The notes under the pieces: generated by a model
What the model was told of the DNA's origin: nothing
Database searches by the model: none
The model's input: the letters and a program-made list of their open reading frames with translations, nothing else
Source of the DNA: a virus
Reading direction: 5' to 3' (one strand)
Virus record (IMG/VR): IMGVR_UViG_3300045988_107814
Location: 154,922 to 218,921 of that record
Length of the DNA stretch: 64,000 bases
Shown here: one piece after another, positions 1-64,000 of the stretch
Numbering within the stretch: the first letter of the stretch is position 1
How the letters are laid out: each line of letters starts with the position of its first letter
Program-made: the position numbers and the translations under genes

Positions 1-136
1 GATGGTTCTGCGACAGACATGATAACTTTCTTGATAGCATCTACGATATCATACTCGCTTCTTATATAAAGCTTTTCATTAAACGGTTCTCTGAAAAGTC
101 TAGAATATTCAGCGAGCATAACTTTTGGGTTAATCA
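1..136 (-). CDS. hypothetical protein, N-terminal part only (gene runs off the window start)
   Basis: ATG at 136-134 overlaps the stop of the upstream gene (ATGATTAA arrangement). Frame stays open to base 1 (MINPKVMLAEYSRLFREPFNEKLY...). Truncated, so absent from the ORF track. Confidence 0.5.
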
Positions 137-11185: not shown

Positions 11186-11276
11186 AATTTTAAACTCCTT
11201 TTAAATAAAATTATTTTGTATACACATAAATTATATATAAATGTAATACATATTGAATTTGTAAAACTTTATATTA

Positions 11277-11436
11277 TTATCTATATATAATTATAGTGAA
11301 TAGAGATAGACATTAGAGACTATCTTGTGAGAAGCTATTCGGTCTGGATGCTCGGAGACCTTAAACTGAGCAAGGACGAACATAAACTTTGGATCTTTAT
11401 TATGATCCGCGATGTATAAAAATGGAGGAATTCATC
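11277..11436 (+). promoter_or_regulatory. class-A conserved promoter box plus ~135-nt structured 5' leader, copy 1
   Basis: Near-identical to 38270-38428. Starts TATCTATATATAATTATAGTGAATAGAGATAG and ends AAAATGGAGGAATTCATCATG. Conserved helices at 11304-09/11320-25, 11341-45/11356-60 (alternative 11349-53/11368-72) and 11391-95/11404-08. Confidence 0.6.
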
Positions 11437-11937
11437 ATGAAAAAGAATATCAAGTTAACTGTATCTGCAACTGTAAGCAAGGCTATTCGTACATTGTTAA
11501 CAAACGAAGAATTGGACTGGGAAACCAGATACCGCATCGAAAAATTCATTGAAAGGAGGATTGTAAAGGAAGACGGCTATATAGAATTGATTGAGATCAA
11601 TTCTAAAATTTATGGCAAGAATATTCTTGCCGTAAAAGATGGAAGATATGATGACCAGGATTTTGATCCTGGTCATTACGAGTATAGATATGTATATACG
11701 TATTTTCTGTATATTAATAAGGAAGGAAAATTGAAGGCAAGAGCCTTTTATACCTTCCGCAAATATAGGGATTTATATTCAGCAGAAGTACAAAGATATC
11801 CTATCAATGAAATATCAATCTTTAACATCGCAGAAATGGAATTGGAATTAGACCATGATCAAACCATAGAAGAAAAAGAAGAAATAGACTATGAGTTCAA
11901 TAATGAATATCGTAAATATTTAGGCTGCGAAGACTAA
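11437..11937 (+). CDS. hypothetical protein
   Basis: ORF 11389-11937. Start moved to ATG 11437 (MKKNIKL...), 8 nt after GGAGG. The upstream in-frame TTG lies inside the conserved leader. Confidence 0.7.
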   Translation: MKKNIKLTVSATVSKAIRTLLTNEELDWETRYRIEKFIERRIVKEDGYIELIEINSKIYGKNILAVKDGRYDDQDFDPGHYEYRYVYTYFLYINKEGKLKARAFYTFRKYRDLYSAEVQRYPINEISIFNIAEMELELDHDQTIEEKEEIDYEFNNEYRKYLGCED

Positions 11938-11969
11938 AAATCAATATATATATATACATACAATGCCTA

Positions 11970-11998
11970 AGAAACGTGTTATTGCCAAGCACGTTTCT
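11970..11998 (+). terminator. conserved terminator (cassette copy 1)
   Basis: AGAAACGTG ttattgccaag CACGTTTCT followed by TTTTT. Same stem and loop recur at 13777 and 39235. Confidence 0.8.
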
Positions 11999-12015
11999 TT
12001 TTTGACTTATTATGG

Positions 12016-12030
12016 TTAACTTTAATATAA
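12016..12030 (+). promoter_or_regulatory. AACTTTAATATAA box (candidate phage middle/late promoter), copy 1
   Basis: TTAACTTTAATATAA lies ~10 nt upstream of the SD of the prohead protease gene and directly after the conserved terminator. Confidence 0.45.
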
Positions 12031-12053
12031 AAGAACCGTAAGGAGGTATATAA

Positions 12054-12875: not shown

Positions 12876-12924
12876 AACAATAGAGAGGACATTTAAGTCC
12901 TCTCTATATTTTTCTTTTTATTTA

Positions 12925-12992
12925 TATATTATTATAGTGATAATATAGGATACGGAAATCGTTATAAAGTAACTCGTCCTATATATTGGAGG
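12925..12992 (+). promoter_or_regulatory. class-B promoter box plus ~55-nt conserved leader, copy 1
   Basis: TATATTATTATAGTGATAATATAGGATACGGAAATCGTTATAAAGTAACTCGTCCTATATATTGGAGG. Recurs at 35331-35400 (minus) and 62498-62556. Confidence 0.55.
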
Positions 12993-13768: not shown

Positions 13769-13776
13769 TTATTACT

Positions 13777-13805
13777 AGAAACGTACTATTGCCAAGTACG
13801 TTTCT
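13777..13805 (+). terminator. conserved terminator (cassette copy 2)
   Basis: AGAAACGTAC tattgccaa GTACGTTTCT followed by TTTTT. Stem differs from copy 1 by a compensatory GTG/CAC to GTA/TAC change. Confidence 0.8.
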
Positions 13806-13820
13806 TTTTTGTCTTATAGC

Positions 13821-13836
13821 TTGAACTTTAATATAA
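13821..13836 (+). promoter_or_regulatory. TTGAACTTTAATATAA box, copy 2
   Basis: Identical 16-mer to 39279-39294, just upstream of the SD of gene 13854. Confidence 0.45.
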
Positions 13837-13853
13837 TGAGAGGAGATGATAAT

Positions 13854-19909: not shown

Positions 19910-19985
19910 TGGTTGGGATAGCTGGATTTGAACCAGCGGAATGACGGAGTCAAAGTCCGTTGCCTTACCACTTGGCTATATCCCA
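19910..19985 (-). tRNA. tRNA-Gln (anticodon UUG)
   Basis: Cloverleaf on the minus strand. Acceptor TGGGATA/TATCCCA, D arm GCC-AAGTGGTAA-GGC, anticodon stem ACGGA/TCCGT with loop CTTTGAC, and T arm GCTGG-TTCAAAT-CCAGC. Discriminator A and encoded CCA. Very close to bacterial tRNA-Gln. Variable region appears to be 6 nt. Confidence 0.85.
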
Positions 19986-20946: not shown

Positions 20947-23361
20947 TTAAACCTTCTTTACTCTCATTTTTACAACTTCTCCACCTTTAATCATTTTAAT
21001 TCCAGTACTAATACTTGTACCAGACGGAATACTAGATACAGGAATTTCAATAATTTCTCCAGTAGGTGCAATAGTTGCCTCTAGAATTTCATTTTGATTT
21101 ACACCGCACATAGCTACGATGTTGTCTGTCTTACTAAGTTTAATCACATTACTACCAGCTTTACTTCTTCCCTTTTGTACACAATCTGGAATAATTCTGT
21201 TAACATAACCATTCTTAGTAACTACTACAATATCCTTAAATCCCTTACAAATAACAGACATACCTTCAACGTTAGTTGTTTTACTAGACATTGAGATACA
21301 GCCTCTTGAATTTCGTTTAAGAATAGGAATCTCATTAATATCGATTCTCAAAGCTTTCTTACTACCATATACTACGATCTCTGCATTATTGTTAAACATA
21401 AGCATATCGATAATTTTATCATTACCATCAAGCTTACAATACACAAGACCACTAGTGGGAACATTAAGAAAATCAGTAGTTGTCATTCTCTTAATAAATC
21501 CATCCTTTGTAAGGGTAACAACAAATCCTTTACTATATTGCTCCATTACTACATCATATACTACAGATGTGATTTGAGAATTAATATACTTATTAATCAA
21601 TCGAATATCAATACCACTTGAGTTTTTATCTGCAAATGGAATTTTAGCAATTGGAATGTTATAAACTTTACCAAACTCATCAAACAACAAAATGTTTCTG
21701 CTGTTATCACCAGCTACAACAAATTTTACATTATCATTCTTAGGTTTAGTAATAGGATCATTTACTCCAATCTTTTTAATGAAGTTATTTTCAGTAATAA
21801 CAACTTTAAATGTTCCAGCTGCTACACCATTAACTTCAGATTCTGAAATGAGTTTGCATTTTCTAGGCATACCATATTTTGCTTTAATTTCAAGAAGCTC
21901 ATTGATAATATTCTGCTCGATAGCACCATCTGTAACAATGACATCTGTACAAGCTTTAATATCTTGATTCAATTTAACTTCTTCTTGTTTAAAGATATTA
22001 TAATATCCCTTTGAAAGTTTCTTCAGTTCACAATTGATAAAGAACTTAGCTTGAATATCAGTAATCTTACATTTCTTGATCAGCATTTCAATCAATACAT
22101 TATCATCTGTAGATTTATTACTTTTAATCATATTGATAATGTCGTCAGAAATACCTCTCTCAATTGCCATAATATACATACTGATAACATGCTTTCTTGT
22201 CATAAGCTTCTGAATACGATTATCAAAGTATCTTAACTTGGTAAGCTTTCTAAACTCAATCCAAGCTTTTAGATACCCAGTATAAGATAATCTCTTTACA
22301 GGATACGCTCTATCTCCAGTATCCATAACTTTAAGATTAACTCTTGCCGTCTGGAGAAGATTAGTATTCTTATAAATTTCATTACGAATATAATTTGGAT
22401 CCGTACCAGGTTTAAGAACAATTACAAATCTCATATGATCAAGATCAGACTTATGCTTTTTACCAGTTCTGTCTTTCTCAATAAAAGATTGTTCTTCCAT
22501 ATCAATGATACCAATAATCTTGTTCTTTTTAACCATTTCTGTTAACTTAAGAATTGCAGTTTCTAGAAACGTTTGATTAGGACAAGACTTAATAACAAGT
22601 GTTTGACAATCCCTATATTTGTTATTATCACCTTTATAAGGTTCAATATCAATTACACTTCTTACTTTATAATTACCATATCCTTTAGCACTAATATCGG
22701 CCCAGTCAGTATCTACGATTTCACATGCTTGACAATGATCTGGAACTAATGCAATCTTTGCTTTTGGATTTTGAATCAAAGTAATAGTAGCATCTATTAC
22801 TTCATTGATATTATGTGATGGGATATCTACTTTATCACCAACACTAATACCTGTACAACCGTTAATCAATAACAGTGGTACTTTACAAGGTAGAAAATTA
22901 GGTTCAGGTTTAGATTCATCATAATTCCTTCCCCAATCTACAACTTCTTTAAATGATACCAACTCATCAAGAATACATTCCTGAGCAAACTTACTTAACT
23001 TTACTTCAGTATAACGATAAGATGCAGGAACGTTTTGATACGTGTTACCAAAGTTACCTTGTCCTTCAAACAACGGAATCTTTGTTTGAAACCAATTTGT
23101 CATTGTACACAGTGCTCCATAAATACTAGAGTCACCATGAGGGTGATAACCACCCATTGTAGAACCTACAATGTCTGCACATTTTCTATTATCTAGTGCA
23201 TTAGATACAAATCTTGCTGTATACAAGATTCTTCTTTGAACAGGCTTTAAACCATCTCTAAGTTCAGGAGTAGTTCTATGTCTTTCTACATATAGAGCAT
23301 ACTCTTTATAGTCTTTGGTATACTGTTCATTAGCTTTTGTGTCTACGATAGTTTGTGGCAT
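20947..23361 (-). CDS. type IIA DNA topoisomerase, subunit A (GyrA/ParC-like)
   Basis: RDGLKPVQRRILY, GGYHPHGD, active-site region ASYRYTEVKL, and a long C-terminal beta-pinwheel-sized domain. Confidence 0.92.
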   Translation of the reverse strand: MPQTIVDTKANEQYTKDYKEYALYVERHRTTPELRDGLKPVQRRILYTARFVSNALDNRKCADIVGSTMGGYHPHGDSSIYGALCTMTNWFQTKIPLFEGQGNFGNTYQNVPASYRYTEVKLSKFAQECILDELVSFKEVVDWGRNYDESKPEPNFLPCKVPLLLINGCTGISVGDKVDIPSHNINEVIDATITLIQNPKAKIALVPDHCQACEIVDTDWADISAKGYGNYKVRSVIDIEPYKGDNNKYRDCQTLVIKSCPNQTFLETAILKLTEMVKKNKIIGIIDMEEQSFIEKDRTGKKHKSDLDHMRFVIVLKPGTDPNYIRNEIYKNTNLLQTARVNLKVMDTGDRAYPVKRLSYTGYLKAWIEFRKLTKLRYFDNRIQKLMTRKHVISMYIMAIERGISDDIINMIKSNKSTDDNVLIEMLIKKCKITDIQAKFFINCELKKLSKGYYNIFKQEEVKLNQDIKACTDVIVTDGAIEQNIINELLEIKAKYGMPRKCKLISESEVNGVAAGTFKVVITENNFIKKIGVNDPITKPKNDNVKFVVAGDNSRNILLFDEFGKVYNIPIAKIPFADKNSSGIDIRLINKYINSQITSVVYDVVMEQYSKGFVVTLTKDGFIKRMTTTDFLNVPTSGLVYCKLDGNDKIIDMLMFNNNAEIVVYGSKKALRIDINEIPILKRNSRGCISMSSKTTNVEGMSVICKGFKDIVVVTKNGYVNRIIPDCVQKGRSKAGSNVIKLSKTDNIVAMCGVNQNEILEATIAPTGEIIEIPVSSIPSGTSISTGIKMIKGGEVVKMRVKKV

Positions 23362-24118: not shown

Positions 24119-26416
24119 TTATTCTTTAAGCAAAAGATCTTTGTTAGAATTGATATATCTCATTTCTTGTAACTCCTTCTCAATATCTTCGACTGTATAT
24201 CTTACAAGTTTTCTATCACCATCAGGTTTTAGAGTAGACTCAGCAAGCATAACTGGATTCATTTCACCAAGTCCCTTAAATCTCTTCAATCTAGCAGGTT
24301 TGAAACTCTCAAAGATTGTCATAAGATCATACAATGTCATTCTAGTATCGTTAACAATATATTCTGAATCAGAACTATCAATGAATGAGATTACTTCTTT
24401 ACATTCTTTGATAAGCATATCATTAAAGAATACTTTATGATATTTGTCATTAGCTACACCTTCAATTATGATCATACCATTTACTTGAGTAACTTCGATA
24501 AATCTGTACAGTTTCTTGATAATGGATTTAAACTTATTAAACGGTAATTTTCTATTGACAAGAATATGTTCTAACAACTTCGGATCAATTGCGTGATTAA
24601 ACGATACTTTGTTAAGCTCACTAATATAATCTTCATTGTTATATAGGATTCTTGTAATTTCAGCAGGTTTAAGTTCTTTTCCACTAACAGATTTAATCTT
24701 ATACTGTTTACTAAATTCACTCTGTACATACTTAACAAAGTCAAGCATATTAGAGAAATATTTGTAATCATTGTTACCCTTAGGAATTGCAAATAGAGGC
24801 GGTAGAGCTGCAAATAATCTTCCAGCTTCTACAAAAGGTGCACAATATAACATAAAGAATCTCAACCATAGAGTTCTAATATGTGCACCATCTGGATCGG
24901 CATCTGCCATGATAATTACTCTAGATATCTTGCATTTAGATAAGTTAAAGTTCTTACCATATCCAGCTCCCATGATAGTCAATACACCAGAGAGTTCGTC
25001 ATTTTTCAAAATCTCTGCTTTTGACTTTTCAAATGCATTTGGAATTTTACCTCTTGAAGGAAGAATACCTTGATGTGCCTGATCTCTTACGTTTCTTGCT
25101 GAACCATACGCAGAATCACCCTCAACAATTATGAGTTCGTTATCGTGCTTACTATTCGGTCTCAGATATTTTTCTGGAAGACCCGAAAACGGCGACGCTT
25201 CGAACATCGAAGACAGTTTAATTTTATCTTTGTCTTGTTTATTTCTCATCTCGATAACTTCTTTGAAATATTTACAAAGTTTCTGAAGTTCCGAAGAATG
25301 AGATTTAGACCATTCATTTAAACCGGCAATAATTGTCTGAGAAACAAAAGGTTTCATATCTTCATTACTAAGCAATTCCTTAGCTTGACCATTATATAAT
25401 GCTCTAAGATGGAAAGTACTGATAGCAAGTTTAAGTCCTTGTCTAATATCTTGTACAGTACAAGTTAGTTTATTCTTTGCTTTAGAGTTCTTAAGATAAA
25501 TCTTATTCATATAATCCCTAAAGTATCTAGTGATACCATCAAGAGCACCGTCTACATGAGTACCACCATCAGTAGGACAAGTGTTATTCAAGGAAATAAT
25601 CTCCTCGTCGCTACCAGTATCATAGGTAAAAGCAACTTCCATCTTATGAGTACCATCATCATTTCTAATAATGATAGGTTCAATAAATGGATTTTGAGTC
25701 ATATTAATAAGATGAGTTATAATACCATCTCTGTTTTCAATAGATTCAATATGCTTTTTACCACCAATATCAATGCCTGTATATTCTACATGAGTACCAA
25801 TTGGAGTTGATGGTACAATGATAGAAATAAGATCATAAATATCTTTCCAAGTAGTAGTTACAGTACCAATTACTGTTTCATTAGGAATAAACGAGATTGT
25901 AGAACCTTGTCTATCACCACATTTAATATCTACTTCACCCTTCTTCCAAATATGACCTTCGATAAATTCTACATGCTTAGCTTTACCCAGCACATAGCTA
26001 TCTACAGTAAATTTACTAGAAAGGGCATTTGTAGTAGAACCACCACAACCATTCTTACCAGCAGAATATTTATATGGTTCTTTTACATAGTTAGATGAAG
26101 TATGGCTAGTACCAAAGATAATACCAATTTTACCATGAGGAATACCTCTACCATTATCACTAACTGTAACTTTATGAGTTCTTTCATCATATTCTACAAA
26201 GATATTTTGAGAAAATGCATTTCCTTTAAGAATTTCATCAATAGAGTTTTGAAAAATCTCTCTTACCATTGTAATAAATGCAGCATTATCTTTTACTTTT
26301 CCTATATATACGTCAGGTGTTTGTCTTACCTGTTCTACAAAGTCTGAGATTTGTTTTATTTCGTCTCCATAATTCTTGGCTCTATCTTCTAATGAAGATG
26401 TTTTTATTTTCTTCAT
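24119..26416 (-). CDS. type IIA DNA topoisomerase, subunit B (GyrB/ParE-like ATPase-Toprim)
   Basis: GHKL motifs SDNGRGIP and GKNGCGGS. Toprim IIVEGDSAYGSA, LPSRGKIPN and IMADADPDGAHI. Start moved to ATG 26416 (MKKIKTSS...) after AAGGAGG. Confidence 0.92.
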   Translation of the reverse strand: MKKIKTSSLEDRAKNYGDEIKQISDFVEQVRQTPDVYIGKVKDNAAFITMVREIFQNSIDEILKGNAFSQNIFVEYDERTHKVTVSDNGRGIPHGKIGIIFGTSHTSSNYVKEPYKYSAGKNGCGGSTTNALSSKFTVDSYVLGKAKHVEFIEGHIWKKGEVDIKCGDRQGSTISFIPNETVIGTVTTTWKDIYDLISIIVPSTPIGTHVEYTGIDIGGKKHIESIENRDGIITHLINMTQNPFIEPIIIRNDDGTHKMEVAFTYDTGSDEEIISLNNTCPTDGGTHVDGALDGITRYFRDYMNKIYLKNSKAKNKLTCTVQDIRQGLKLAISTFHLRALYNGQAKELLSNEDMKPFVSQTIIAGLNEWSKSHSSELQKLCKYFKEVIEMRNKQDKDKIKLSSMFEASPFSGLPEKYLRPNSKHDNELIIVEGDSAYGSARNVRDQAHQGILPSRGKIPNAFEKSKAEILKNDELSGVLTIMGAGYGKNFNLSKCKISRVIIMADADPDGAHIRTLWLRFFMLYCAPFVEAGRLFAALPPLFAIPKGNNDYKYFSNMLDFVKYVQSEFSKQYKIKSVSGKELKPAEITRILYNNEDYISELNKVSFNHAIDPKLLEHILVNRKLPFNKFKSIIKKLYRFIEVTQVNGMIIIEGVANDKYHKVFFNDMLIKECKEVISFIDSSDSEYIVNDTRMTLYDLMTIFESFKPARLKRFKGLGEMNPVMLAESTLKPDGDRKLVRYTVEDIEKELQEMRYINSNKDLLLKE

Positions 26417-26474
26417 TATTGACCTCCTTAACAAAAAAGGTAGCAATTTTCAACTACCCTTTTTATAAATTTAA

Positions 26475-35330: not shown

Positions 35331-35400
35331 ACCTCCATATATAGGATGAGTTACTTTATAACGATTTCCGTATCCTATATTATCACCGTAATAATATATA
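35331..35400 (-). promoter_or_regulatory. class-B promoter box plus conserved leader, copy 2
   Basis: Minus strand reads TATATATTATTACGGTGATAATATAGGATACGGAAATCGTTATAAAGTAACTCATCCTATATATGGAGG. Confidence 0.55.
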
Positions 35401-35408
35401 AGTTTAAA

Positions 35409-36676: not shown

Positions 36677-37303
36677 ATGAAGGAACAAAAGTATACCAGT
36701 AACCGTATGGTCACAGCGAATGTAATTCGTGGTTACAAAAATCATATTGAAGAGCTGAAAGAAAAAATGGAACAGTATGATCAAGAAATCAGCAGGATTT
36801 CCAATCTTGTTGAAAATCTTGAAGGCTTGGTGGACATGGATGAAAAACATGAAATAACAATTGAAGATGTTATTAAGTTCATTTCCACTTCTACAAATCA
36901 TGATAAGAATATCATTAAATCTGCACTCGGAGTAAGTAATATGGAAGATGACGGATTTTATGACAATGTCGATTGGGCGGTATTTTATAAACATATTTCT
37001 CAAATTACGCAACACAATACTGTTCCAAATATAAATATTTTGAAAAGGCTAGTCGAAGCGTGCCAAGGACTCACGCAACAAGAAGTCGTAGAAAAAATAG
37101 GATTCTTATCTACTTGCAAAATAATTCAACTAAACAAAATATTAGAATCCTATGGATTAGGAAGAATAGGATTAAAAAAGAAAAGAACAGTACACCGTAA
37201 ATCATGTAAACCATCATACAAAAAAGCATCAGAAACCAGAAAGAAAAGAATTAAGGTGATGAATGACATGGTAGATATGGTAAACGAGTTAAATAAGAGA
37301 TAA
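36677..37303 (+). CDS. hypothetical protein, possible HTH regulator (coiled-coil N-terminus, basic C-terminus)
   Basis: TAGGAGG SD. LTQQEVVEKIGFLSTCKIIQLNK is HTH-like. C-terminal KKKRTVHRKSCKPSYKKASETRKKRIK. Confidence 0.6.
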   Translation: MKEQKYTSNRMVTANVIRGYKNHIEELKEKMEQYDQEISRISNLVENLEGLVDMDEKHEITIEDVIKFISTSTNHDKNIIKSALGVSNMEDDGFYDNVDWAVFYKHISQITQHNTVPNINILKRLVEACQGLTQQEVVEKIGFLSTCKIIQLNKILESYGLGRIGLKKKRTVHRKSCKPSYKKASETRKKRIKVMNDMVDMVNELNKR

Positions 37304-37325: not shown

Positions 37326-37356
37326 AAACAATCGGGGAGGTCAGACCCGATTGTTT
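37326..37356 (+). terminator. rho-independent terminator
   Basis: AAACAATCGGG gaggtcaga CCCGATTGTTT followed by TTTTTTT. Confidence 0.85.
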
Positions 37357-37380
37357 TTTTTTTGTATTATTACACTTACT

Positions 37381-37393
37381 TTAACTTTATAGT
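37381..37393 (+). promoter_or_regulatory. TTAACTTTATAGT box (variant of the AACTTTAATATAA box)
   Basis: Directly upstream of the SD of gene 37409 and downstream of a terminator, the same layout as the three conserved cassettes. Confidence 0.35.
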
Positions 37394-37408
37394 AAGGAGG
37401 TGTAATAT

Positions 37409-38221
37409 ATGGAAAATTATTTATCATTTGAAACTGGTATAGATAATGAAGACAGAGTATATGCTCATAGAGGAGATATATTTATCTGTGAAGGATTATT
37501 TAAACCACTTGATGATATTGAAAAGAATGACCATATAATCGGAAAACCCGATAGACCAGTTCTAATTATTTCTAGTGACGAGAATAATATTAATATCGTT
37601 AAGGTATTACCATTCTCGACTAAATCTGGATCTTTTGATTCTAACTCTATTACTTCTGGTAGAGTAATTAAAGTCCCTGGAATTGGAAACAATCTAAACT
37701 CTAATTTTATCGATGTATCTCAGATATTCACTATCAATACTTATCAACTGAAAGTAAAATTGGGACGTGCTTCTCAAGAGATTGTAGATGCTGCTGTTGC
37801 ATTACATACTTTACAAAATATTGCTAATGCTTCATCAGTAAATACAATAGTCAAAATATTCAAAGACAAGTATCCAAAAGCACAAGTATTTAATCATCCT
37901 GTTACTATAAGTAATGATGGTTGTGTTAATGGACAGAAAATGTTTATGAATAATATGTATGATCCGTCAGTTGATCTGTTTACTGAAGTTAAACAAGTAT
38001 CTATAGAAGAACTTAATGCTCAGATAAAGAATACATTGAAACTACCAGAAACAAAAGAAGATGCTTATGAATTATATACAGAATGGCTATCATTAGGAAC
38101 AGATATATTTAGAAACAAGTACGGCTTATCTAGACAACAATATATAACGTTGAGAGATAAATGCGTATGTAAGATGCTAGGTAAAATAGCAAACTTTAAG
38201 AAACATGATTGGTCAGCTTAA
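37409..38221 (+). CDS. MazF/PemK-like (SH3-barrel toxin fold) N-terminal domain fused to an unknown ~135-aa C-terminal half
   Basis: Colinear with B. subtilis EndoA/MazF. HRGDIFICE matches KRGDVYFAD, GKPDRPVLIISSD matches GGVRPVLVIQND, VLPFSTKS matches AAITAQ, and FIDVSQIFTINTYQLKVKLGRASQEIVDAAVALH matches ILLEQIRTIDKQRLTDKIGHLDDEMMDKVDEAL. Confidence 0.7.
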   Translation: MENYLSFETGIDNEDRVYAHRGDIFICEGLFKPLDDIEKNDHIIGKPDRPVLIISSDENNINIVKVLPFSTKSGSFDSNSITSGRVIKVPGIGNNLNSNFIDVSQIFTINTYQLKVKLGRASQEIVDAAVALHTLQNIANASSVNTIVKIFKDKYPKAQVFNHPVTISNDGCVNGQKMFMNNMYDPSVDLFTEVKQVSIEELNAQIKNTLKLPETKEDAYELYTEWLSLGTDIFRNKYGLSRQQYITLRDKCVCKMLGKIANFKKHDWSA

Positions 38222-38229
38222 TTGTATAA

Positions 38230-38255
38230 ACAGACTGGATTAAATTCCAGTCTGT
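38230..38255 (+). terminator. rho-independent terminator
   Basis: ACAGACTGGA ttaaat TCCAGTCTGT followed by CTTTATTTT. Confidence 0.8.
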
Positions 38256-38269
38256 CTTTATTTTATATT

Positions 38270-38428
38270 TTATCTATATATAATTATAGTGAATAGAGAT
38301 AGATATTAGACTATCCTTTGAGAAGCTATTCAGTCTGGATGCTCGGAGACCTTAAACTGAGCAATAGAAGAACATAAACTTTGGATCTATTACTATGATC
38401 CCTGATGAAGAAAATGGAGGAATTCATA
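38270..38428 (+). promoter_or_regulatory. class-A conserved promoter box plus structured 5' leader, copy 2
   Basis: See 11277-11436. Same start and end sequences, same helices, different loops. Confidence 0.6.
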
Positions 38429-39211
38429 ATGATTAACAATATTACTGTAAAGTACGTAGACTCCGTAACTAAGGTTACTATAAAGAAAGAGATTAATTTC
38501 AGAGATCTTTTCGGAAAAGAGGATATTTCAAAGATTTCTAAGTATGGAATTATTCTCGCTACCGTTAACTTTGAAAAGAACTGTAAGACAATTAGGCGTA
38601 GAGCATTTTTTAGAGGTGGATTGAATAAGGATTTGATGTACTATATCCTGACTGCTTCTGAAAATAGTATTTTGATTAAATTTAGTGAAAAGTTTGAAAT
38701 TAATCTGATGAAATATTCCAACATCGATTTCATGGATGAAATGTTAAGCTACTGGGATGTTAATGATGAACAAGAACTCGTTAACTATTATCGAGAAACT
38801 TTGCCTGTATTTGAATATAAGAGAACTTTTGCTGAAGTCTTGGCTACTCTCGTATCTTATTCAGATTATTGGGATAATCTTCAGTATTGTCTTAAGTATA
38901 ATGATATTGAAGATACTGAAATTAAAATTAGTAAATCGTATTTTAAGAAGCAGGGTGATAATTTATATACGATAACATGTTGTTACAAAAACGAAAATTA
39001 TGAAGGGTATATGACTGTCGTTGTACAAGAATGTAAAGCAATTAAAATGCTTTTTAATAATTATAATAGTGGTGCTATTATTATTGATAATCATGAAATT
39101 GGAATAGTTAATGAAAATCCTTGTCCGGATCCCATTGGTCAAGGACAGAACCTCTTGACTGTTTTGATTTTGGCCATGTTTTTGTCTAACGATGGTGTTT
39201 GGTGGAAGTAA
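38429..39211 (+). CDS. hypothetical protein
   Basis: ORF 38405-39211. Start moved to ATG 38429 (MINNITVKY...), 8 nt after the conserved GGAGG. Confidence 0.7.
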   Translation: MINNITVKYVDSVTKVTIKKEINFRDLFGKEDISKISKYGIILATVNFEKNCKTIRRRAFFRGGLNKDLMYYILTASENSILIKFSEKFEINLMKYSNIDFMDEMLSYWDVNDEQELVNYYRETLPVFEYKRTFAEVLATLVSYSDYWDNLQYCLKYNDIEDTEIKISKSYFKKQGDNLYTITCCYKNENYEGYMTVVVQECKAIKMLFNNYNSGAIIIDNHEIGIVNENPCPDPIGQGQNLLTVLILAMFLSNDGVWWK

Positions 39212-39234
39212 TCTGATATAATATAACAAAAGAA

Positions 39235-39261
39235 GAAACGTGTTATTGCCAAGCACGTTTT
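39235..39261 (+). terminator. conserved terminator (cassette copy 3)
   Basis: GAAACGTG ttattgccaag CACGTTTT followed by CTTTTTT. Confidence 0.8.
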
Positions 39262-39278
39262 CTTTTTTGTTTGTTAGC

Positions 39279-39294
39279 TTGAACTTTAATATAA
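39279..39294 (+). promoter_or_regulatory. TTGAACTTTAATATAA box, copy 3
   Basis: Identical to 13821-13836. Upstream of the 39319-46707 structural operon. Confidence 0.45.
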
Positions 39295-39318
39295 ATGACT
39301 AGAAAAGGAGGATTAATT

Positions 39319-40254
39319 ATGCCTAAAACGTATAATAATACATTTATTTATAGCAAATTTCCATACGAAGAAAACATATTTAGATTCCTTATCAATGCTA
39401 ATCGTATTGATAAAGACACTGATAAGTTTGAAGATATTAAGTATGAATTCAAAAAGAGACAGATCGATAATAGTCTCTTGAAAGTTCTTATGTCTAAGAA
39501 CGTTATTCTTTGCTTATCTGAATCTATGCCCTTGAATACACAATTTAGAGTTATTTGTGCAAGGGATCCTAAATTTAAATCTAATACAGATTATAAGATT
39601 TTTATCGACTGTACTGGTCTTATTACGTTAGATAAGAGTGGTAATTATAAATGCCGTAGTATTGATATCTTAGTTTCTCATATCGTAAATGCTATGGTAA
39701 CAATGATTTATCATAAAGCCGAGAATCAGATTCTTTCTACACAATTGATTTCTGATACAATGGAAGCTTTTGCTAATCTATTTACTCATGTAATTGATTA
39801 TCTAGCAAAGATTTCTGTAATTCCTTCTTCTAAATCTAAATGTCAGTTCTTGGCTTGTATGTACTTTACTGAGAATATTATCCAGAAAGATTTCAATAAT
39901 AACTTTCAACATATTGCCGGTAAGATTACTAATCTTTCTGAAAGAGAACAAGAAATGATAATGACTCAGTGTGATGAAGAAGATTTTGATAATATCAAGT
40001 CTTTTGTTTCTAAACTTGCTACACTTATTAAAGTACCTGGAATTAAAGTAGATAATGTATTAGATAAATGGATGTATCTATACGGCTCTAATACAGTATT
40101 CTCTCTTGAATATTATCCAGCACTATCTGCAATGTTAACAGATGCATATTGCGGTGCATATATTAACAATCAGAAAACTATCGAAAAGGTGGTAGGAAAT
40201 ACTTTAGTAAGTTATACTAAGAATGTTATTGCTAAAGGTGGGACGTTAGTATGA
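39319..40254 (+). CDS. hypothetical protein (first gene of the putative tail/structural operon)
   Basis: ORF 39295-40254. Start moved to ATG 39319 (MPKTYNN...) after AAAGGAGG. ATGA-type overlap with the next gene. Confidence 0.7.
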   Translation: MPKTYNNTFIYSKFPYEENIFRFLINANRIDKDTDKFEDIKYEFKKRQIDNSLLKVLMSKNVILCLSESMPLNTQFRVICARDPKFKSNTDYKIFIDCTGLITLDKSGNYKCRSIDILVSHIVNAMVTMIYHKAENQILSTQLISDTMEAFANLFTHVIDYLAKISVIPSSKSKCQFLACMYFTENIIQKDFNNNFQHIAGKITNLSEREQEMIMTQCDEEDFDNIKSFVSKLATLIKVPGIKVDNVLDKWMYLYGSNTVFSLEYYPALSAMLTDAYCGAYINNQKTIEKVVGNTLVSYTKNVIAKGGTLV

Positions 40255-44859: not shown

Positions 44860-46707
44860 ATGCAAACTTTATATTGTGGTACTACTGACTTTAGTTCTGT
44901 AGATAGACACGATAGTCAAATTACTATATATGGCGATGATAAAGATTCTACAGTAAGAAAATCATTTATTGAAAATTTAGCTAAGTCTTTAGACGGATTA
45001 TCTATAATAGAAATGAAAGAAATAACTGTAATAGAAGAATATGCTTTGTCTAATCTACAAGTAAGTAAGTTTAAACTTATTCTTCCTGATACATTAACTA
45101 CTATAGGAAAATATGCATTCCAAAACTGTACAGCTATGAATGATATTGTAATCCCAGCATCTGTAACTAGTATTGGCGAAGGCGTGTTTTATGGATGTGC
45201 ATCTTTAAATAATATTTATTTTAAAGAAGATACTAAAATTACTTATATTCCAGAGTTGTTCTGTTCTGGTGGTGGTTTTAATACTATAGGAATAGAATAT
45301 AATGATGGTACAAGAACTGAGCATGACAAAATAGAATTTCCAAAATCTATTACTAAGATTGGTAATAATGCATTTTATAATTGTGGATCTATGGGACATA
45401 CATTAGTAATTGGAGATAATATAACTACTATTGGTGATTATGCTTTCTTTGGAACTACTATTGACGTTATAAAGGTTGGTAATGGTATTAACACTGGTTC
45501 TGACCAAAAAACTGAAGATTTTGATGATGGCAATTATGATACAGATAGAGATATTGCTGTTCCTTATACATTATACTTATCATCAAAACGTCAATTTAGA
45601 TATAAGTATTTTGTTGCTGAAAAAGATATGGATCCTGGCACTATATATCTAATGAATAAGAAAGAGTATGAGGAAACTGATGAAAAGACTTATACTTATA
45701 AAACAGATGATGATGACTTTAAGTTCTGCTTACAGAATTCTCATTTAATGATCTTTAAAAATGGTTTGTTATTACCAAAATCTTTCTACTATTTACATTC
45801 TATTATCAATACTCCAATTACAGACGTAGGTGTTGTATTTAATGTTCCTATAAAGACTGGAGATAGAATTGATATATTCTATATAACTAATGATCTTAAG
45901 CATATAGATACAGAATACTATGATGAGAAAAATAAAGAAAGATATATTAAAAATGGTGATATTGAAGTAAGTAATAAGGAAAGTGAATATCGTGTAATGG
46001 GTAACCAATTATATGAGAACAACACTTCTAGAACTAACTATATTAAATTACGTTCTCCTTTATATGCTATTTCTAGTAAACATTCTGTATTTGTATTTCT
46101 AAATGGTAAGAAAGTAAGATTAGATGAACTTGAAGATATATCTGATACTATAATGAGTGTAAATACAGATTATAGTACTTATAATCCAGAGATGAACGCT
46201 GCTATACTAGAAGTGATGAATCACTTAGATACACAAGATATTATTGAACAGATGTATATTAATGATGGTTTAAATCATGATACAAACACATCAAGTCAAT
46301 TTAATAATACTGATAATAATAATGTATATAAATCTACAAAGTTAGTATCTTCTGTAGATCTTACTAAATTAGAAGCGTATGCTAAACGTACATTATTAGA
46401 TGATATTCTTAATGATCTATCTGATACTAATTTAAATAAGTTATTCTATAATTATGATACTGCTAAAGGACCTATGACATTATATAATAAGAGTAATACT
46501 AATGAACCTGATTTTATTAATAGAAATGATGTAATTGCAAGTATAGTAGATAAATATTATACTAGTGGTGAATCTTATATTGATGAAAAATTAGATTTAT
46601 TTGAAGTTCCTAAAGCAAGTGGTGTTGTAGAACAAGACAATACAAACGGTACTCTATATTATCTTGGTGATGATATTAAAGCCCCTGAAACTAGTACTGA
46701 AGAATAA
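44860..46707 (+). CDS. BspA-type leucine-rich-repeat protein, candidate receptor-binding/tail fibre protein
   Basis: Repeats of the I..IG..AF..C..L..I.IP.SVT.IG type: IEEYALSNL, LTTIGKYAFQNCTAMNDIVIPASVTSIGEGVFYGCASL, ITKIGNNAFYNCGSM and TTIGDYAFFGT. GAGGAGG SD. Confidence 0.75.
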   Translation: MQTLYCGTTDFSSVDRHDSQITIYGDDKDSTVRKSFIENLAKSLDGLSIIEMKEITVIEEYALSNLQVSKFKLILPDTLTTIGKYAFQNCTAMNDIVIPASVTSIGEGVFYGCASLNNIYFKEDTKITYIPELFCSGGGFNTIGIEYNDGTRTEHDKIEFPKSITKIGNNAFYNCGSMGHTLVIGDNITTIGDYAFFGTTIDVIKVGNGINTGSDQKTEDFDDGNYDTDRDIAVPYTLYLSSKRQFRYKYFVAEKDMDPGTIYLMNKKEYEETDEKTYTYKTDDDDFKFCLQNSHLMIFKNGLLLPKSFYYLHSIINTPITDVGVVFNVPIKTGDRIDIFYITNDLKHIDTEYYDEKNKERYIKNGDIEVSNKESEYRVMGNQLYENNTSRTNYIKLRSPLYAISSKHSVFVFLNGKKVRLDELEDISDTIMSVNTDYSTYNPEMNAAILEVMNHLDTQDIIEQMYINDGLNHDTNTSSQFNNTDNNNVYKSTKLVSSVDLTKLEAYAKRTLLDDILNDLSDTNLNKLFYNYDTAKGPMTLYNKSNTNEPDFINRNDVIASIVDKYYTSGESYIDEKLDLFEVPKASGVVEQDNTNGTLYYLGDDIKAPETSTEE

Positions 46708-53509: not shown

Positions 53510-55084
53510 ATGGCACAACAATCAGAAAATTATGATTACCTTTATGAGAGACTACAGGAATATTACAATGTTTCTGTAACAGGTAATTATCCGTTTAATA
53601 TTCCTTTGAATAAGAACGGACAACCGATTTATAAGTTCGAGTCTAGAATCGTTCCTATCGATTTTGACGAGACTTGTAAGAATGATATTATCAAGGGTAT
53701 CGGTTTCTATATTTCTAAGAAGCAAGATATCAAGAAGGATGTTAGATCTATTGATAGTATCTTTTCATCTAGATTTGGTATGCAAATTGATGACATGACA
53801 CCTTTTGGAGACGTTTATAAATGTAAATGTGGAAAGACAATGATGAAAGTAAACAATGGATTGTTTTGCCCATTTTGTCACACAAAGGTTAGATATGTTG
53901 CAAATGACTTCTCTATTACTGGTTGGATTAAGATAAATGATTTTGAAATTATCCATCCAAACATGTTTAAGAAGTTAATCTCATTTATGGGAAAGAAAGT
54001 TTTGGATTCTATTATTAATATAGATACTAAAACAAACGAGGATGGTTTTGAAAATGTAAAAGAACCATCCAAAGCAAGTCCGTTTTCTGGTCTTGGCTTT
54101 ATCAAGTTTAAAGAGAGATTTGATGAAGTTATGGAATTCTACAGAAATAAGTACAAATCTAATGCAAATAAGATGGCTTATTATGAAGACATTATGCAGA
54201 ATAAGAAAATTGTATTTTGTCATTGTCTTCCAGTTTATACTTCTCAGTTAAGACCATTCTCTATTAAACAGAATAAATTTAACTTTGAAGGTAATAATGC
54301 ACTTTATAATCTTATTGCTGGATTAGTTGCTAAGCTTAATAAACACAATATTTATTCTCGTAATAGAAATAAGCCGACTAATCAGATTCTGTATGATATT
54401 CAAATGAAGTATATGGAGATCTATGCAGATCTTGAAAAGGTAATTGCACAAAAGAAAGGTTATACTAGATCTCTTAATGGTGGTAGATATAACTTTACTG
54501 CAAGAAATGTAATTATTCCTGATCCTGATTTAAGGATTGATGAGATCATTCTTCCATATCCATCATTGATAGAATTAATGAGTCTTACTATCATTAATAT
54601 TCTTACAAAGACATATAGTCCGTCAGAAGCTTATAGAATTTGGGATGAAGCTCGTATTGAGTATAATCCTATGATTGCTGATTTGATACAGAATATTATT
54701 GATAGTCAATATGTAGCAATTACACTTAATCGAAATCCTAGTATTTCTCCGTCTTCTATTATTCAGCTTCATGTAGTTGGAGTAACTAAAAATGACACTT
54801 ATAGTTGTCATGTACCTCACGAGATTCTCAAATCAATGGGTGCAGACTTTGATGGCGATACTTTGAATATTCTTCTTATTATTAATGATGAATTCTTATT
54901 AAATGCTGCTAAGTTGTTTAATCCTAGACTCAGTATGCAAATATCATATAATGATGGAATGTTTAATGGTAAGATGTCATTGCAGACCGATACAATGATC
55001 TGTATTAATTCATTTACTCAGCTTGGAATTGATAGTATTACTGATGAAGAGTATGCTATGATTGAAGCTTGTCAAAATTCATAA
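53510..55084 (+). CDS. multisubunit RNA polymerase beta' subunit, N-terminal fragment with catalytic DFDGD loop
   Basis: Zinc ribbon YKCKCGK...CPFCH. LNRNPSISPSSIIQLHV matches LNRAPTLHRLGIQAF. Catalytic MGADFDGDTLN matches NADFDGDQM. Confidence 0.9.
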   Translation: MAQQSENYDYLYERLQEYYNVSVTGNYPFNIPLNKNGQPIYKFESRIVPIDFDETCKNDIIKGIGFYISKKQDIKKDVRSIDSIFSSRFGMQIDDMTPFGDVYKCKCGKTMMKVNNGLFCPFCHTKVRYVANDFSITGWIKINDFEIIHPNMFKKLISFMGKKVLDSIINIDTKTNEDGFENVKEPSKASPFSGLGFIKFKERFDEVMEFYRNKYKSNANKMAYYEDIMQNKKIVFCHCLPVYTSQLRPFSIKQNKFNFEGNNALYNLIAGLVAKLNKHNIYSRNRNKPTNQILYDIQMKYMEIYADLEKVIAQKKGYTRSLNGGRYNFTARNVIIPDPDLRIDEIILPYPSLIELMSLTIINILTKTYSPSEAYRIWDEARIEYNPMIADLIQNIIDSQYVAITLNRNPSISPSSIIQLHVVGVTKNDTYSCHVPHEILKSMGADFDGDTLNILLIINDEFLLNAAKLFNPRLSMQISYNDGMFNGKMSLQTDTMICINSFTQLGIDSITDEEYAMIEACQNS

Positions 55085-62434: not shown

Positions 62435-62497
62435 AATAACAACCTCCTTTATTTTAGCATTTACTAAATAGTTGACCTGTAATAAATATATCGATTA

Positions 62498-62556
62498 AAT
62501 ATTATAATAGTGATAGGATACGAAAATCGTTATAAAGTACACGTCCTATATGGAGG
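62498..62556 (+). promoter_or_regulatory. class-B promoter box plus conserved leader, copy 3
   Basis: AAATATTATAATAGTGATAGGATACGAAAATCGTTATAAAGTACACGTCCTATATGGAGG. Confidence 0.55.
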
Positions 62557-62562
62557 TTTAAT

Positions 62563-63560: not shown

Positions 63561-63824
63561 TTACTTAATTTCAGATGTTTTTACCCAACCAGTTACATAG
63601 TTACCGATAGGAGTTCTACCTACATTGATAGTAGAGTTTGTAATACGAATTCTTCCGTTAGAAATCTCGTTACTATAGATGTAATAAGTACCAGACTTCT
63701 TGCCACCAGATGTAGCAGTAGCAGAAGAATATAAAGTAGCATTACTTAAAGTTACCTTAGTACCAGCTGTTAAAGTTTTCTTAACAGGTGCAGATGTTGC
63801 AGTTCCTTTGACAGCAGATACATC
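63561..63824 (-). pseudogene. out-of-frame terminal SH3b-like cell-wall-binding repeat (87-codon ORF; frameshifted continuation of the gene at 63757-64000)
   Basis: Read by hand; absent from the supplied ORF track. From aa ~17 it encodes KTLTAGTKVTLSNATLYSSATATSGGKKSGTYYIYSNEISNGRIRITNSTINVGRTPIGNYVTGWVKTSEIK. This is nearly identical to the repeat encoded upstream in another frame. Confidence 0.6.
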
Positions 63825-64000
63825 AACCCAACCAGTTACATAGTTACCGATAGGAGTTCTACCTACATTACTAGCAGAGTTAGTAATACGAATCTTATTG
63901 TTTATAACTTCACTACTATAGATATAATAAGTACCAGACTTCTTACCACCAGATGTAGCAGTAGCAGAAGAATATAAAGTAGCATTACTTAAAGTTACCT
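63584..64000. repeat. tandem direct repeat, period 244 bp (not a multiple of 3)
   Basis: CCCAACCAGTTACATAGTTACCGATAGGAGTTCTACCTACATT occurs at 63584 and again at 63828. The ~170 nt shared within the window are near-identical. Confidence 0.85.
63757..64000 (-). CDS. C-terminal part of a protein with tandem SH3b-like cell-wall-binding repeats (probable endolysin or wall-binding protein); 5' end outside the window
   Basis: Open frame from the window end to TAA at 63759-63757. Reads VTLSNATLYSSATATSGGKKSGTYYIYSSEVINNKIRITNSASNVGRTPIGNYVTGWVDVSAVKGTATSAPVKENFNSWY*. Confidence 0.6.

Follow-up and report, generated by a model that had tools for sequence, protein, structure and literature searches.

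A jumbo phage of the AR9/PBS1 type carries a gene for a two-domain, MazF-like protein, and on balance we favor the reading that its product is an endoribonuclease with the MazF/PemK fold that belongs to the phage itself and has no antitoxin; it would be made after the early phase and would cut RNA during infection. What is known of MazF enzymes comes almost wholly from bacterial toxin-antitoxin systems, in which they form one half of the pair. The gene starts with an ATG, exactly at position 37409 of the window, by which we mean the whole 64-kb stretch of DNA that was analysed; its parts and the signals around it are collected in Table 1.

Table 1. Coordinates of the MazF-like gene, its domains and its expression signals, as window positions
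Feature	Position	Strand	Basis
Intrinsic terminator of the preceding early-promoter unit (11-bp stem, 9-nt loop, U10)	37326..37366	+	Folding
AR9-type non-virion-RNAP (late-class) promoter box AACT-TTATAG-TA, AACTTTATAGTA	37383..37394	+	Consensus match
Shine-Dalgarno sequence AAGGAGGTG, 6 nt ahead of the ATG	37394..37402	+	Read from sequence
CDS, 270-aa two-domain MazF-like protein	37409..38221	+	ORF list; stop codon included
N-terminal MazF/PemK-fold nuclease domain, residues 1-137 (Pfam core 21-128)	37409..37819	+	Pfam, PHROG, AF2, Foldseek, hhalign
Basic helix A (residues 138-164) and variable low-confidence linker (165-212)	37820..38044	+	AF2, conservation, charge
Orphan basic three-helix C-terminal domain (residues 213-270)	38045..38218	+	AF2 pLDDT ~81-89
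Intrinsic terminator of the MazF-like gene (10-bp stem, 6-nt loop, T-rich tail)	38230..38255	+	Terminator scan

An earlier note on this DNA had proposed a MazF/PemK-like domain in the N-terminal half of the protein, and profile and fold comparisons agree with it. The profile search that it suggested gave a significant match to PF02452 (PemK_toxin) across residues 21-128 (E = 9.5e-8; 32.7 bits, above the gathering cutoff of 23.1), and PHROG 1936, annotated as 'MazF-like growth inhibitor', matched at 7e-9. In the AF2 model, the domain is a beta barrel followed by a C-terminal helix (pLDDT 65-86 in the barrel) and can be superposed on solved MazF, EndoA and Kid structures, with a TM to target of up to 0.74, which bears out the expected SH3-like fold. 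Foldseek returned 40 matches in the PDB at E <= 0.001, all of them MazF, EndoA or MoxT chains except for one ToxN-type toxin (CptN); Kid stood at rank 50 of the PDB matches.

The residues that would carry out the chemistry are conserved as well. Aligned by hhalign with canonical MazF and Kid sequences, the family gave a probability of 91% and E = 1e-6, and its R49, S70 and Q105 paired with R25, T48 and Q79 of B. subtilis MazF. R25 and T48 in that enzyme, and R29 and T52 in E. coli MazF, are the catalytic arginine and threonine. The claim that these Arg and Ser/Thr positions are retained holds: R49, S70 and Q105 are invariant in a 24-sequence family alignment, together with H20 R21 G22 D23, D41, K46, P50, D102 and S104, and H42 is nearly invariant (at least 90%). 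The motifs RGDIF, DRPVLIISS, PFSTKS and IDVSQIFTIN, quoted earlier as following the MazF pattern, all occur in the protein, and the majority of their residues do not vary across the same alignment. Judged from these positions, the protein is predicted to be catalytically active, with R49 and S70 as its putative catalytic residues.

The domain also has features of its own. Its beta1-beta2 loop (residues 27-48) is longer than usual, has a form specific to the family and stands in place of the canonical G-S/H-E-Q motif, so that the chemistry or the substrate may differ. Searched against PDB sequences, a profile of the family alignment yielded no MazF match at E <= 0.01; the family is thus a distant branch, linked to solved MazFs through profile-profile and fold comparison only.

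Homologs of the protein fall into 87 clusters, nearly all of them full length and nearly all with a precomputed PF02452 annotation, and it is from these clusters that the 24 aligned sequences were drawn. Across the coding sequence, dN/dS is 0.06-0.16, with values of 0.01-0.15 in the N-terminal domain and 0.05-0.15 in the C-terminal domain; both domains are under strong purifying selection. Megablast and tblastn (1e-5) with the gene found nothing meaningful among cultured and GenBank phages, tblastn against 50,697 GenBank phage records found no match to the protein and the N-terminal domain searched by tblastn at E <= 10 recovered nothing meaningful among GenBank phages. An outgroup search with the N-domain profile returned solely family members and a paralog, and the 64-kb window holds no second copy of the gene. 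In GTDB, the family has a single match, on a contig of 212.7 kb, the size of a phage, within a MAG of the Bacilli. The family is phage-only.

The window itself belongs to an AR9/PBS1-like jumbo phage of ~215-230 kb, an uncultured phage of gut samples, probably with hosts among the Bacilli. Its helicase is closest to those of the AR9, PBS1 and S6 jumbo phages, and it encodes split RNAP beta-like subunits. Among uncultured AR9/PBS1-like phages, the MazF-like gene is fixed in one clade, and the long contigs with homologs are all phage genomes or large fragments of ~113-232 kb with conserved synteny. The SbcD-like gene is a conserved part of this synteny; the immediate neighbors vary among relatives.

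The earlier note had seen no MazE/PemI-type gene nearby, and closer inspection of the locus agrees, since no neighbor is conserved and neither intergenic gap beside the gene contains a small antitoxin-like ORF. Neither flanking gene has an antitoxin-type match in Pfam, NCBIfam or PADLOC, and each forms a transcription unit of its own, with a promoter and a terminator. We considered each as a possible antitoxin and rejected both: the upstream 208-aa gene lies in an early-promoter unit and is absent or replaced in four relatives (L001, L003, L004 and L008), while the downstream 268-aa gene is without a homolog in any related locus. Membership in a type II toxin-antitoxin module (mazEF/pemIK) was likewise rejected, as the gene has no adjacent cognate antitoxin and is not an autonomous two-gene cassette; membership in a defense system was rejected, there being no PADLOC match at E <= 1. 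The absence of an antitoxin is not anomalous in an AR9-like jumbo phage of lytic type that encodes RNA polymerases of its own; the gene is inherited vertically, is fixed, and is a phage gene rather than a toxin-antitoxin module.

The uncharacterised C-terminal half that the earlier note described is real and conserved. It is an extension of ~130 aa, in which a basic helix is joined through a variable linker to a three-helix C-terminal domain that is likewise basic, with net charges of +3 for helix A, -2 for the linker and +4 for the C-terminal domain, and pI values of 10.3 for helix A and 9.3 for the C-terminal domain. Helix A and the linker together show dN/dS of 0.05-0.58, and AF2 confidence is low across linker residues 165-194 (pLDDT 39-55); a conserved patch, P186..V194..V197, lies inside the otherwise variable linker. 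The C-terminal domain is modeled with helices at 216-229, 231-238 and 242-256, in a geometry that includes a Gly-containing turn, and F234, Y238, Y245, C252, F263 and W268 are invariant. The arrangement of the two domains in the full-length AF2 model is uncertain (pTM 0.50).

This C-terminal domain is an orphan. A profile HMM of it, searched against 1.84 billion representative proteins, found it only fused to this MazF branch, and Pfam searches with 26 members gave no consistent match. A tandem paralog (P0098), ~35% identical, retains the domain, and the duplication that produced it is old. The proposal that the extension is HTH-like stands in part: the domain is indeed a basic three-helix bundle, but its AF2 model found no significant fold match in the PDB by Foldseek (best E 4.8), the weak neighbors being the HTH regulators KorA, VqmA, RptR, ArsR and SdiA, all at E > 4. 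As neither a structural nor a profile match is significant, the HTH label describes a resemblance only.

The notion that the extension is a fused antitoxin is disfavored, because it is basic, where MazE tails are acidic, and because it matches the nuclease domain in conservation and never occurs apart from it. A related and, in our view, unlikely alternative is that the protein is a single-chain, self-inhibited toxin, in which the P186..V194..V197 patch or the C-terminal domain would fold into the RNA groove and hold the nuclease inactive until some trigger set it free; possible triggers, just as tentative, are proteolysis, a factor from the host or from a competing phage, and packaging or ejection. 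In favor of this, the extension is never without its covalent link to the nuclease domain, which even the old duplication left in place; the variable, disordered linker holds a conserved short patch in a mildly acidic setting (net -2); and an antitoxin in trans is absent. There are also precedents for cis-antitoxin domains in CapRel-SJ46 and EzeT, each a single polypeptide with a toxin domain, an extra domain and no separate antitoxin gene. These are, however, bacterial or prophage defense or addiction proteins of different toxin chemistry, whereas the phage extension is basic, slowly evolving and in a core-like position of a jumbo phage. The charge of helix A and the C-terminal domain is the opposite of that of RNA-mimicking MazE tails, the C-terminal domain evolves as slowly as the nuclease domain, unlike an arms-race sensor, the paralog's linker is without the patch, and holding back a toxin that is not made until the early phase has passed would be of little use to a lytic phage.

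Expression signals around the gene bear on when the protein would be made. The terminators reported to bracket the gene were recovered by folding, the upstream one with a dG of -15.7 kcal/mol (z = -3.6; 0 of 200 shuffles as stable) and the downstream one with a dG of -17 kcal/mol (z = -6.3); equivalents are found ahead of and 3' of most homologs, respectively. By these signals, the gene is monocistronic. The late-type box noted earlier matches the non-early, late class of AR9, whose consensus is AACA-(6N)-TA/G(+1) (PMC5312081); it departs from this consensus at position 4 only (T), and the transcription start is predicted at A37394. An AAC[A/C/T]-N6-TA box recurs at most homolog loci examined, with an exact AACA-N6-TA at three of them (L001, L011 and L012) and AACC or AACT at the others, and it abuts the Shine-Dalgarno sequence in homolog loci (AACAccttatTA, AACActtacaTA, AACAgttataTA, AACTtttttaTA, AACCattataTA, AACTgtgttaTA). 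Strong Shine-Dalgarno sequences are general across the window. The box lies <=60 nt upstream of 20 of the 59 window genes against 3.8 expected, a ~5-fold enrichment, and it also precedes replication genes, so that the 'late' class is not certain. Such a promoter would be read by the phage's own non-virion RNAP, so that the protein is not expected before the early phase has ended. A non-early promoter also argues against immediate-early host shutoff by newly made protein.

Elsewhere in the window, early promoters are followed by long, near-identical 5' leaders, one pair at 38266-38410 and 11275-11420, and a triplicated leader at about 12930, 35400 and 62520. The D3 leader gave a fold z-score of -1.4 as a structured RNA and no match in Rfam.

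A promoter of this type is also what one would expect of a virion-packaged effector, a reading that we hold to be decidedly improbable. The protein would be made with the late proteins, packed like the virion RNAP and ejected with the DNA to cut host RNA at the start of infection, and its C-terminal domain would serve packaging or ejection, or binding to DNA or an inner body, a role to which its basic charge would be suited. AR9-like phages do inject proteins, the vRNAP included (PMC5312081), and most relatives have, immediately after the gene, a block that includes giant structural-type ORFs and a virion structural protein (phrog_21032). However, this link is lost in a divergent subclade (L003-L005 and L025), where the gene still adjoins the SbcD-like gene. 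The gene has its own terminators and lies outside any structural operon, and the same promoter class drives replication genes.

Two further readings dispense with RNA cleavage. One, which we think as improbable as packaging, is that the MazF fold is non-catalytic and acts as an RNA-binding regulator, as a decoy for a host MazE-type antitoxin or defense factor, or as a ligand or partner module for an HTH-like, DNA-binding transcription factor formed by the C-terminal domain. The remodeled beta1-beta2 loop, the distance of the family from characterised MazFs and the HTH regulators among the weak structural neighbors are consistent with it; against it, the equivalents of the catalytic Arg, Thr and base-contacting Gln are strictly invariant, which a decoy or scaffold would not require, and a significant HTH profile or fold match is absent. 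The other, a CcdB-like poison of host gyrase, is barely credible even though CcdB shares the MazF/Kid fold and the phage encodes a type II topoisomerase (subunits at 20947-23361 and 24119-26446) on which it could rely instead, and we reject it on profile, fold and residue grounds: Pfam at E <= 10 gives PemK and not CcdB, the top 50 structural neighbors listed include no CcdB and are nearly all MazF/Kid RNases, the RNase-type catalytic residues are conserved, and the gyrase-binding C-terminal end of CcdB is replaced by a continuing helix and the extension.

We return to the favored reading, an antitoxin-free endoribonuclease made after the early phase. Its N-terminal domain would act in the manner of MazF, as a dimer that cuts single-stranded RNA at a short sequence by means of Arg49 and Ser70, independently of metal ions and ribosomes. 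Helix A and the C-terminal domain, rather than serving as an antitoxin, would add binding to RNA, or to another nucleic acid or partner, and may thereby contribute to target choice or localisation; a role of the C-terminal domain in substrate binding or targeting is what we infer. The enzyme would destroy host transcripts, early-class phage transcripts or both, freeing ribosomes and nucleotides for late expression. Host mRNA does fall during AR9 infection (PMC5312081). Compared with synonymous-codon shuffles and a Markov model, the window genes (58 kb, low power) showed no sense-strand-specific avoidance of 4- or 5-mers, and there is thus no sign of self-protection; the depleted words are A/T runs and Shine-Dalgarno-like words only, and at this sequence length the count of UACAU (68, with 83 expected; z = -2.2) carries no information.

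T4 RegB follows the same logic but uses another toxin fold. RegB is a metal-independent phage RNase of a toxin-antitoxin toxin fold (RelE/YoeB) that is without a known antitoxin and inactivates a temporal class of mRNAs (PMC3014915). The likeness is a functional analogy and implies no homology: RegB has the RelE/YoeB fold, whereas the jumbo-phage protein has that of MazF, and RegB is an early gene whose product depends on ribosomal protein S1, whereas the MazF-like gene has a non-early promoter and an extra domain of its own. A more specific version of the favored reading, and one that we regard as quite unlikely, holds that the C-terminal domain is a nucleic-acid-recognition module that steers the nuclease to one class of RNA, for example early transcripts with their repeated 5' leaders, as an early-to-late switch, or alternatively that the protein is a host-shutoff enzyme that is both packaged and injected. 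If true, either would be a new way to target a toxin-antitoxin toxin fold, through a fused recognition domain.

Set beside MazF, EndoA (YdcE) and PemK-Kid (PF02452), the protein shares the SH3-like barrel and C-terminal helix, the RGD start motif, the catalytic arginine in R-P-V, the Ser/Thr hydroxyl and the Gln of the beta5-beta6 region, with significant profile and fold matches. In contrast to them, it has no antitoxin gene or bicistronic autoregulated operon, is placed under a phage RNA-polymerase promoter, has an enlarged beta1-beta2 loop without the canonical G-S-E-Q, carries the ~130-aa extension with its orphan domain, and belongs to a phage-only family too remote for a sequence profile to detect any MazF in the PDB. 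Its nearest likeness among phage proteins is to those of PHROG 1936 and the PemK-like proteins of uncultured phages in BFVD, which also encode a PemK domain and in some cases are 220-266 aa long. Their C-terminal parts are unrelated, the PHROG 1936 alignment spanning only profile positions 10-121 of 188, and the C-domain profile found no other phage PemK-like proteins. Accessory pemK/mazF genes also occur in temperate staphylococcal phages (PMC6507118), whereas the gene described here is not a moron but is fixed and syntenic in a jumbo phage of lytic type.

The finding is no conceptual surprise, given that PemK-like genes are annotated in many phages and that T4 RegB is a precedent for a phage RNase with a toxin fold. 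Its meaning is that a jumbo-phage lineage has kept a branch of MazF as its own single gene, antitoxin-free and wired to the phage's RNAP. If active, the protein would be a concrete candidate for clearing host or early messages in AR9-like phages, a naturally antitoxin-free RNA cutter, possibly of new specificity, that could be used as a tool, and a clean case in which to study what an added domain does to a toxin fold, be it retargeting or restraint.

The ORF boundaries and strand proposed in the earlier note match exactly. The 270-aa product has a single Pfam match, PF02452 (PemK_toxin; residues 21–128, E = 9.5e-8), whose score of 32.7 bits exceeds the gathering cutoff of 23.1 and bears out the proposed PemK/MazF domain. 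It also matches phrog_1936, 'MazF-like growth inhibitor', at 7e-9 in PHROGs (profile positions 10–121 only, of 188). The alignment-based AlphaFold model (mean pLDDT 73) contains the barrel expected of a MazF-type fold, and the 40 Foldseek matches in the PDB at E ≤ 0.001 are MazF, EndoA or MoxT chains, except for one ToxN-type toxin (CptN); Kid ranks 50th, and the highest TM-score to the target across matches is 0.74. The family sequence profile alone reaches no PDB chain at E ≤ 0.01, and the protein is therefore a remote branch. We mapped its residues by profile–profile comparison with four canonical MazF/Kid sequences (91% probability, E = 1e-6). The start motif, catalytic Arg-Pro, catalytic hydroxyl and base contact all have B. 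subtilis MazF counterparts and do not vary among the 24 aligned family sequences, as had been suggested for the catalytic Arg and Thr/Ser. In place of the canonical β1–β2 loop (G-S/H-E-Q), the protein has a longer one that conserves residues of its own (F31, K32, D41 and K46 invariant, H42 nearly so).

Features of the MazF-like gene, its protein and the surrounding phage DNA (window or residue positions)
Feature	Position	Strand	Details
MazF-like CDS	37409-38221	+	270 aa; ATG 6 nt downstream of AAGGAGGTG
Late-type box AACT-TTATAG-TA	37383-37394	+	predicted start A37394
Upstream terminator	37326-37366	+	z=-3.6
Downstream terminator	38230-38255	+	z=-6.3
Beta barrel	residues ~20-121		AlphaFold model
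MazF-type C-terminal helix	residues 123-136		AlphaFold model
Further helix	residues 141-154		AlphaFold model
Disordered stretch	residues 165-194		AlphaFold model
Three-helix bundle	residues 216-256		AlphaFold model, confident
Start motif	R21-G22-D23		B. subtilis MazF R5-G6-D7, profile-profile comparison
Catalytic Arg	R49-P50		B. subtilis MazF R25-P26, profile-profile comparison
Catalytic hydroxyl	S70		B. subtilis MazF T48, profile-profile comparison
Base contact	Q105		B. subtilis MazF Q79, profile-profile comparison
Helix A	residues 138-164		median net charge +3; basic, pI 10.3
Linker	residues 165-212		median net charge -2; length 34-53 aa; conserved P186..V194..V197 patch
C-domain	residues 213-270		median net charge +4; basic, pI 9.3
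Split multisubunit RNAP beta-like subunits	4111-6360; 53510-55084	-; +	AR9/phiKZ-type hallmark
Type II topoisomerase subunits, two	20947-23361; 24119-26446	-; -	AR9/phiKZ-type hallmark
NAD-dependent DNA ligase	1793-4114	-	AR9/phiKZ-type hallmark
tRNA-Gln(UUG)	19910-19985	-	AR9/phiKZ-type hallmark

We likewise agree that no antitoxin gene lies nearby. The intergenic gaps on either side contain no ORF of at least 30 aa, and neither neighbor matches an antitoxin-type family or is conserved. The adjacent upstream 208-aa gene has a weak match in only four related loci, is missing from L003, L004 and L008, and in L001 has its place taken by a 467-aa gene. For the downstream 268-aa gene, none of the related loci has a homolog. 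No PADLOC or NCBIfam model matched the MazF-like protein. Across 14 related loci, its gene is syntenic with a divergently transcribed SbcD-like gene (59–89% identity) and, in most, with a 319-aa virion protein (78–89%). In a sister clade (L022–L024; SbcD-like protein 46–48% identity), no MazF-like gene lies within 5 kb of SbcD; consequently, the gene is a fixed feature of one clade, not of AR9-like phages as a whole. These IMG/VR jumbo-phage contigs (73–230 kb) allow natural presence/absence comparisons.

We infer that the source is an uncultured AR9-like jumbo phage with a Firmicutes (Bacilli) host. Besides the tabulated hallmarks, the window (G+C ~30%) encodes a UvsX-like recombinase, a head-maturation protease, a divergent DnaB helicase and an SbcD-like phosphoesterase; most genes have a strong AGGAGG ribosome-binding site upstream. 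Among 50,697 GenBank phages, the helicase best matches Bacillus phages AR9/PBS1 and Staphylococcus jumbo phages S6/Machias (~28–30% identity), and the MazF-like gene has no DNA or protein match. Contigs bearing its homologs are 212–232 kb long; the one match in GTDB genomes is a 212.7-kb contig of a human-gut 'Bacilli bacterium' MAG. The structural block also holds, after a 1530-aa giant ORF, a BspA-type leucine-rich-repeat protein (LRR_5, E = 4.8e-26; 44860–46707, +; counterpart L001 17195–19072) that may be a host-adhesion or receptor-binding component. At the right window end, a 186-nt direct repeat (63572–63757 and 63815–64000) is 88% identical with 243 nt spacing.

AR9 early promoters, AAATATATATTAT-(6N)-G(+1), are served by the injected virion RNAP, and late promoters, AACA-(6N)-TA/G(+1), by the non-virion RNAP, nvRNAP (PMC5312081; PMC7598289). 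Clear early-type boxes, TATATA(T/A)TAT-TATAGT-G, occur at 11291, 12932, 36608, 38284 and other sites, and 20 of the 59 window genes have an AAC[A/C/T]-N6-TA box in the 60 nt upstream, where box density predicts 3.8. The MazF-like gene has such a box, giving a predicted leader of 15 nt that is essentially the Shine–Dalgarno (SD) sequence alone. A terminator followed by a box abutting the SD recurs in all but one of the distinct homolog upstream regions compared (L004/L005 is ambiguous), with the boxes AACAccttatTA, AACActtacaTA, AACAgttataTA, AACTtttttaTA, AACCattataTA and AACTgtgttaTA. The bracketing terminators noticed earlier are both present, and the same-strand flanking genes (36677–37303 and 38405–39211) each have an early-type promoter. 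Therefore, the MazF-like gene is a monocistronic, non-early unit between two early units. The 'late-type' box is real, but a strict 'late' label is unsafe: helicase, topoisomerase, SbcD-like and RNAP-subunit genes have the box too, which makes 'nvRNAP-dependent / non-early' the safer term.

Several promoter regions are repeated in the window. A terminator and late-promoter cassette (AAGAAACGTGTTATTGCCAAGCACGTTTCTTTTTTG...TTGAACTTTAATATAA) occurs three times (11969–12034, 13776–13841 and 39233–39298, +), fronting the head-maturation protease, a phrog_2921 protein and a phrog_21032 virion structural protein. ORFs 13809 (TTG) and 39295 (ATG) are listed with starts that fall ahead of the predicted transcription start or inside it; translation probably begins at the next ATG with an SD before it, at about 13870 and at 39319. 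An early promoter (TATATATAATTATAGTG) with a ~120-nt 5′ leader is duplicated at 38266–38410 and 11275–11420 (+), 89% identical and entering the first codons (KMEEFIM) of the otherwise unrelated ORFs 38405–39211 and 11389–11937; its RNA fold is non-significant (z = -1.4), with no Rfam match. A second early promoter and conserved leader (TATATATTATTATAGTGATAATATAGGATACGGAAATCGTTATAAAGTAACTCGTCCTATATA) appears three times (~12916–12985, +; ~35339–35408, -; ~62493–62562, +) ahead of mutually unrelated genes. These early leaders could be regulatory elements or RNase targets.

The C-domain, modeled separately, again forms three helices, the second and third joined by a turn that contains Gly (pLDDT 77). 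A stretch of the extension had been called HTH-like; the helices and turn give a resemblance, but the domain's Foldseek neighbors in the PDB (HTH regulators, the SelB winged helix) are non-significant, with a best E-value of 4.8. No Pfam family matched consistently across 26 members. A C-domain HMM searched against 1.84 billion representative proteins gave 11 matches, 10 of them the MazF-like family itself, either full-length members that end in the domain (one distant member has 285 aa) or fragments of such members; the eleventh was rejected as a spurious low-complexity repeat. In one divergent subclade, the gene is tandemly duplicated (L025 844–2513, 269 + 261 aa); the paralogs are ~35% identical, and the second also carries a C-domain (hhalign 97%, E = 1.6e-11). 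The second copy in L003 (10001–11397) is shortened to 170 aa by a frameshift. Heterodimers between tandem paralogs are conceivable. dN/dS is 0.01–0.15 for the N-domain, 0.05–0.15 for the C-domain and 0.05–0.58 for the middle segment. Since the C-domain occurs only in this family, is retained by the paralog and has a low dN/dS, its fusion to MazF is old, obligatory and functional.

The reading with most support is that of an active MazF-type endoribonuclease, owned by the phage and made from its own non-early promoter; its activity, dimerization, targets and timing we infer. The basic extension would add nucleic-acid binding or targeting to the nuclease, and no antitoxin would be needed, since an infected cell is bound for lysis anyway. 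Host mRNA declines during AR9 infection (PMC5312081). Testing k-mers for signs that the phage protects its own messages was uninformative. A first rival is cis-autoinhibition of the nuclease by the linker or C-domain; for this basic extension, nucleic-acid binding or targeting is more likely than inhibition. The protein might instead be packaged in the virion and injected as a host-shutoff effector, or act as a non-catalytic binder or decoy or a DNA-binding regulator. Least likely is a CcdB-like gyrase poison, disfavored by profile, fold and residues.

By sequence, fold and catalytic residues, the protein belongs to the PemK/MazF fold family. We rejected a type II TA module: there is no partner gene, no bicistronic cassette and no residence in bacteria. 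In its proposed function, the protein most resembles T4 RegB, a phage RNase that has a toxin fold but no known antitoxin and that inactivates one temporal class of mRNAs (PMC3014915). Earlier catalogs include PemK-like proteins of phages (PHROG 1936, BFVD entries of 220–266 aa, staphylococcal temperate-phage pemK/mazF), and some carry long extensions, unrelated to the one described here; a comparative survey of jumbo phages does not mention MazF/PemK (PMC7824862). What is new is a MazF branch confined to one clade, lacking an antitoxin, fused to an orphan domain and wired to the phage polymerase. Conceptually, the protein is no surprise; it is attractive for experiment.
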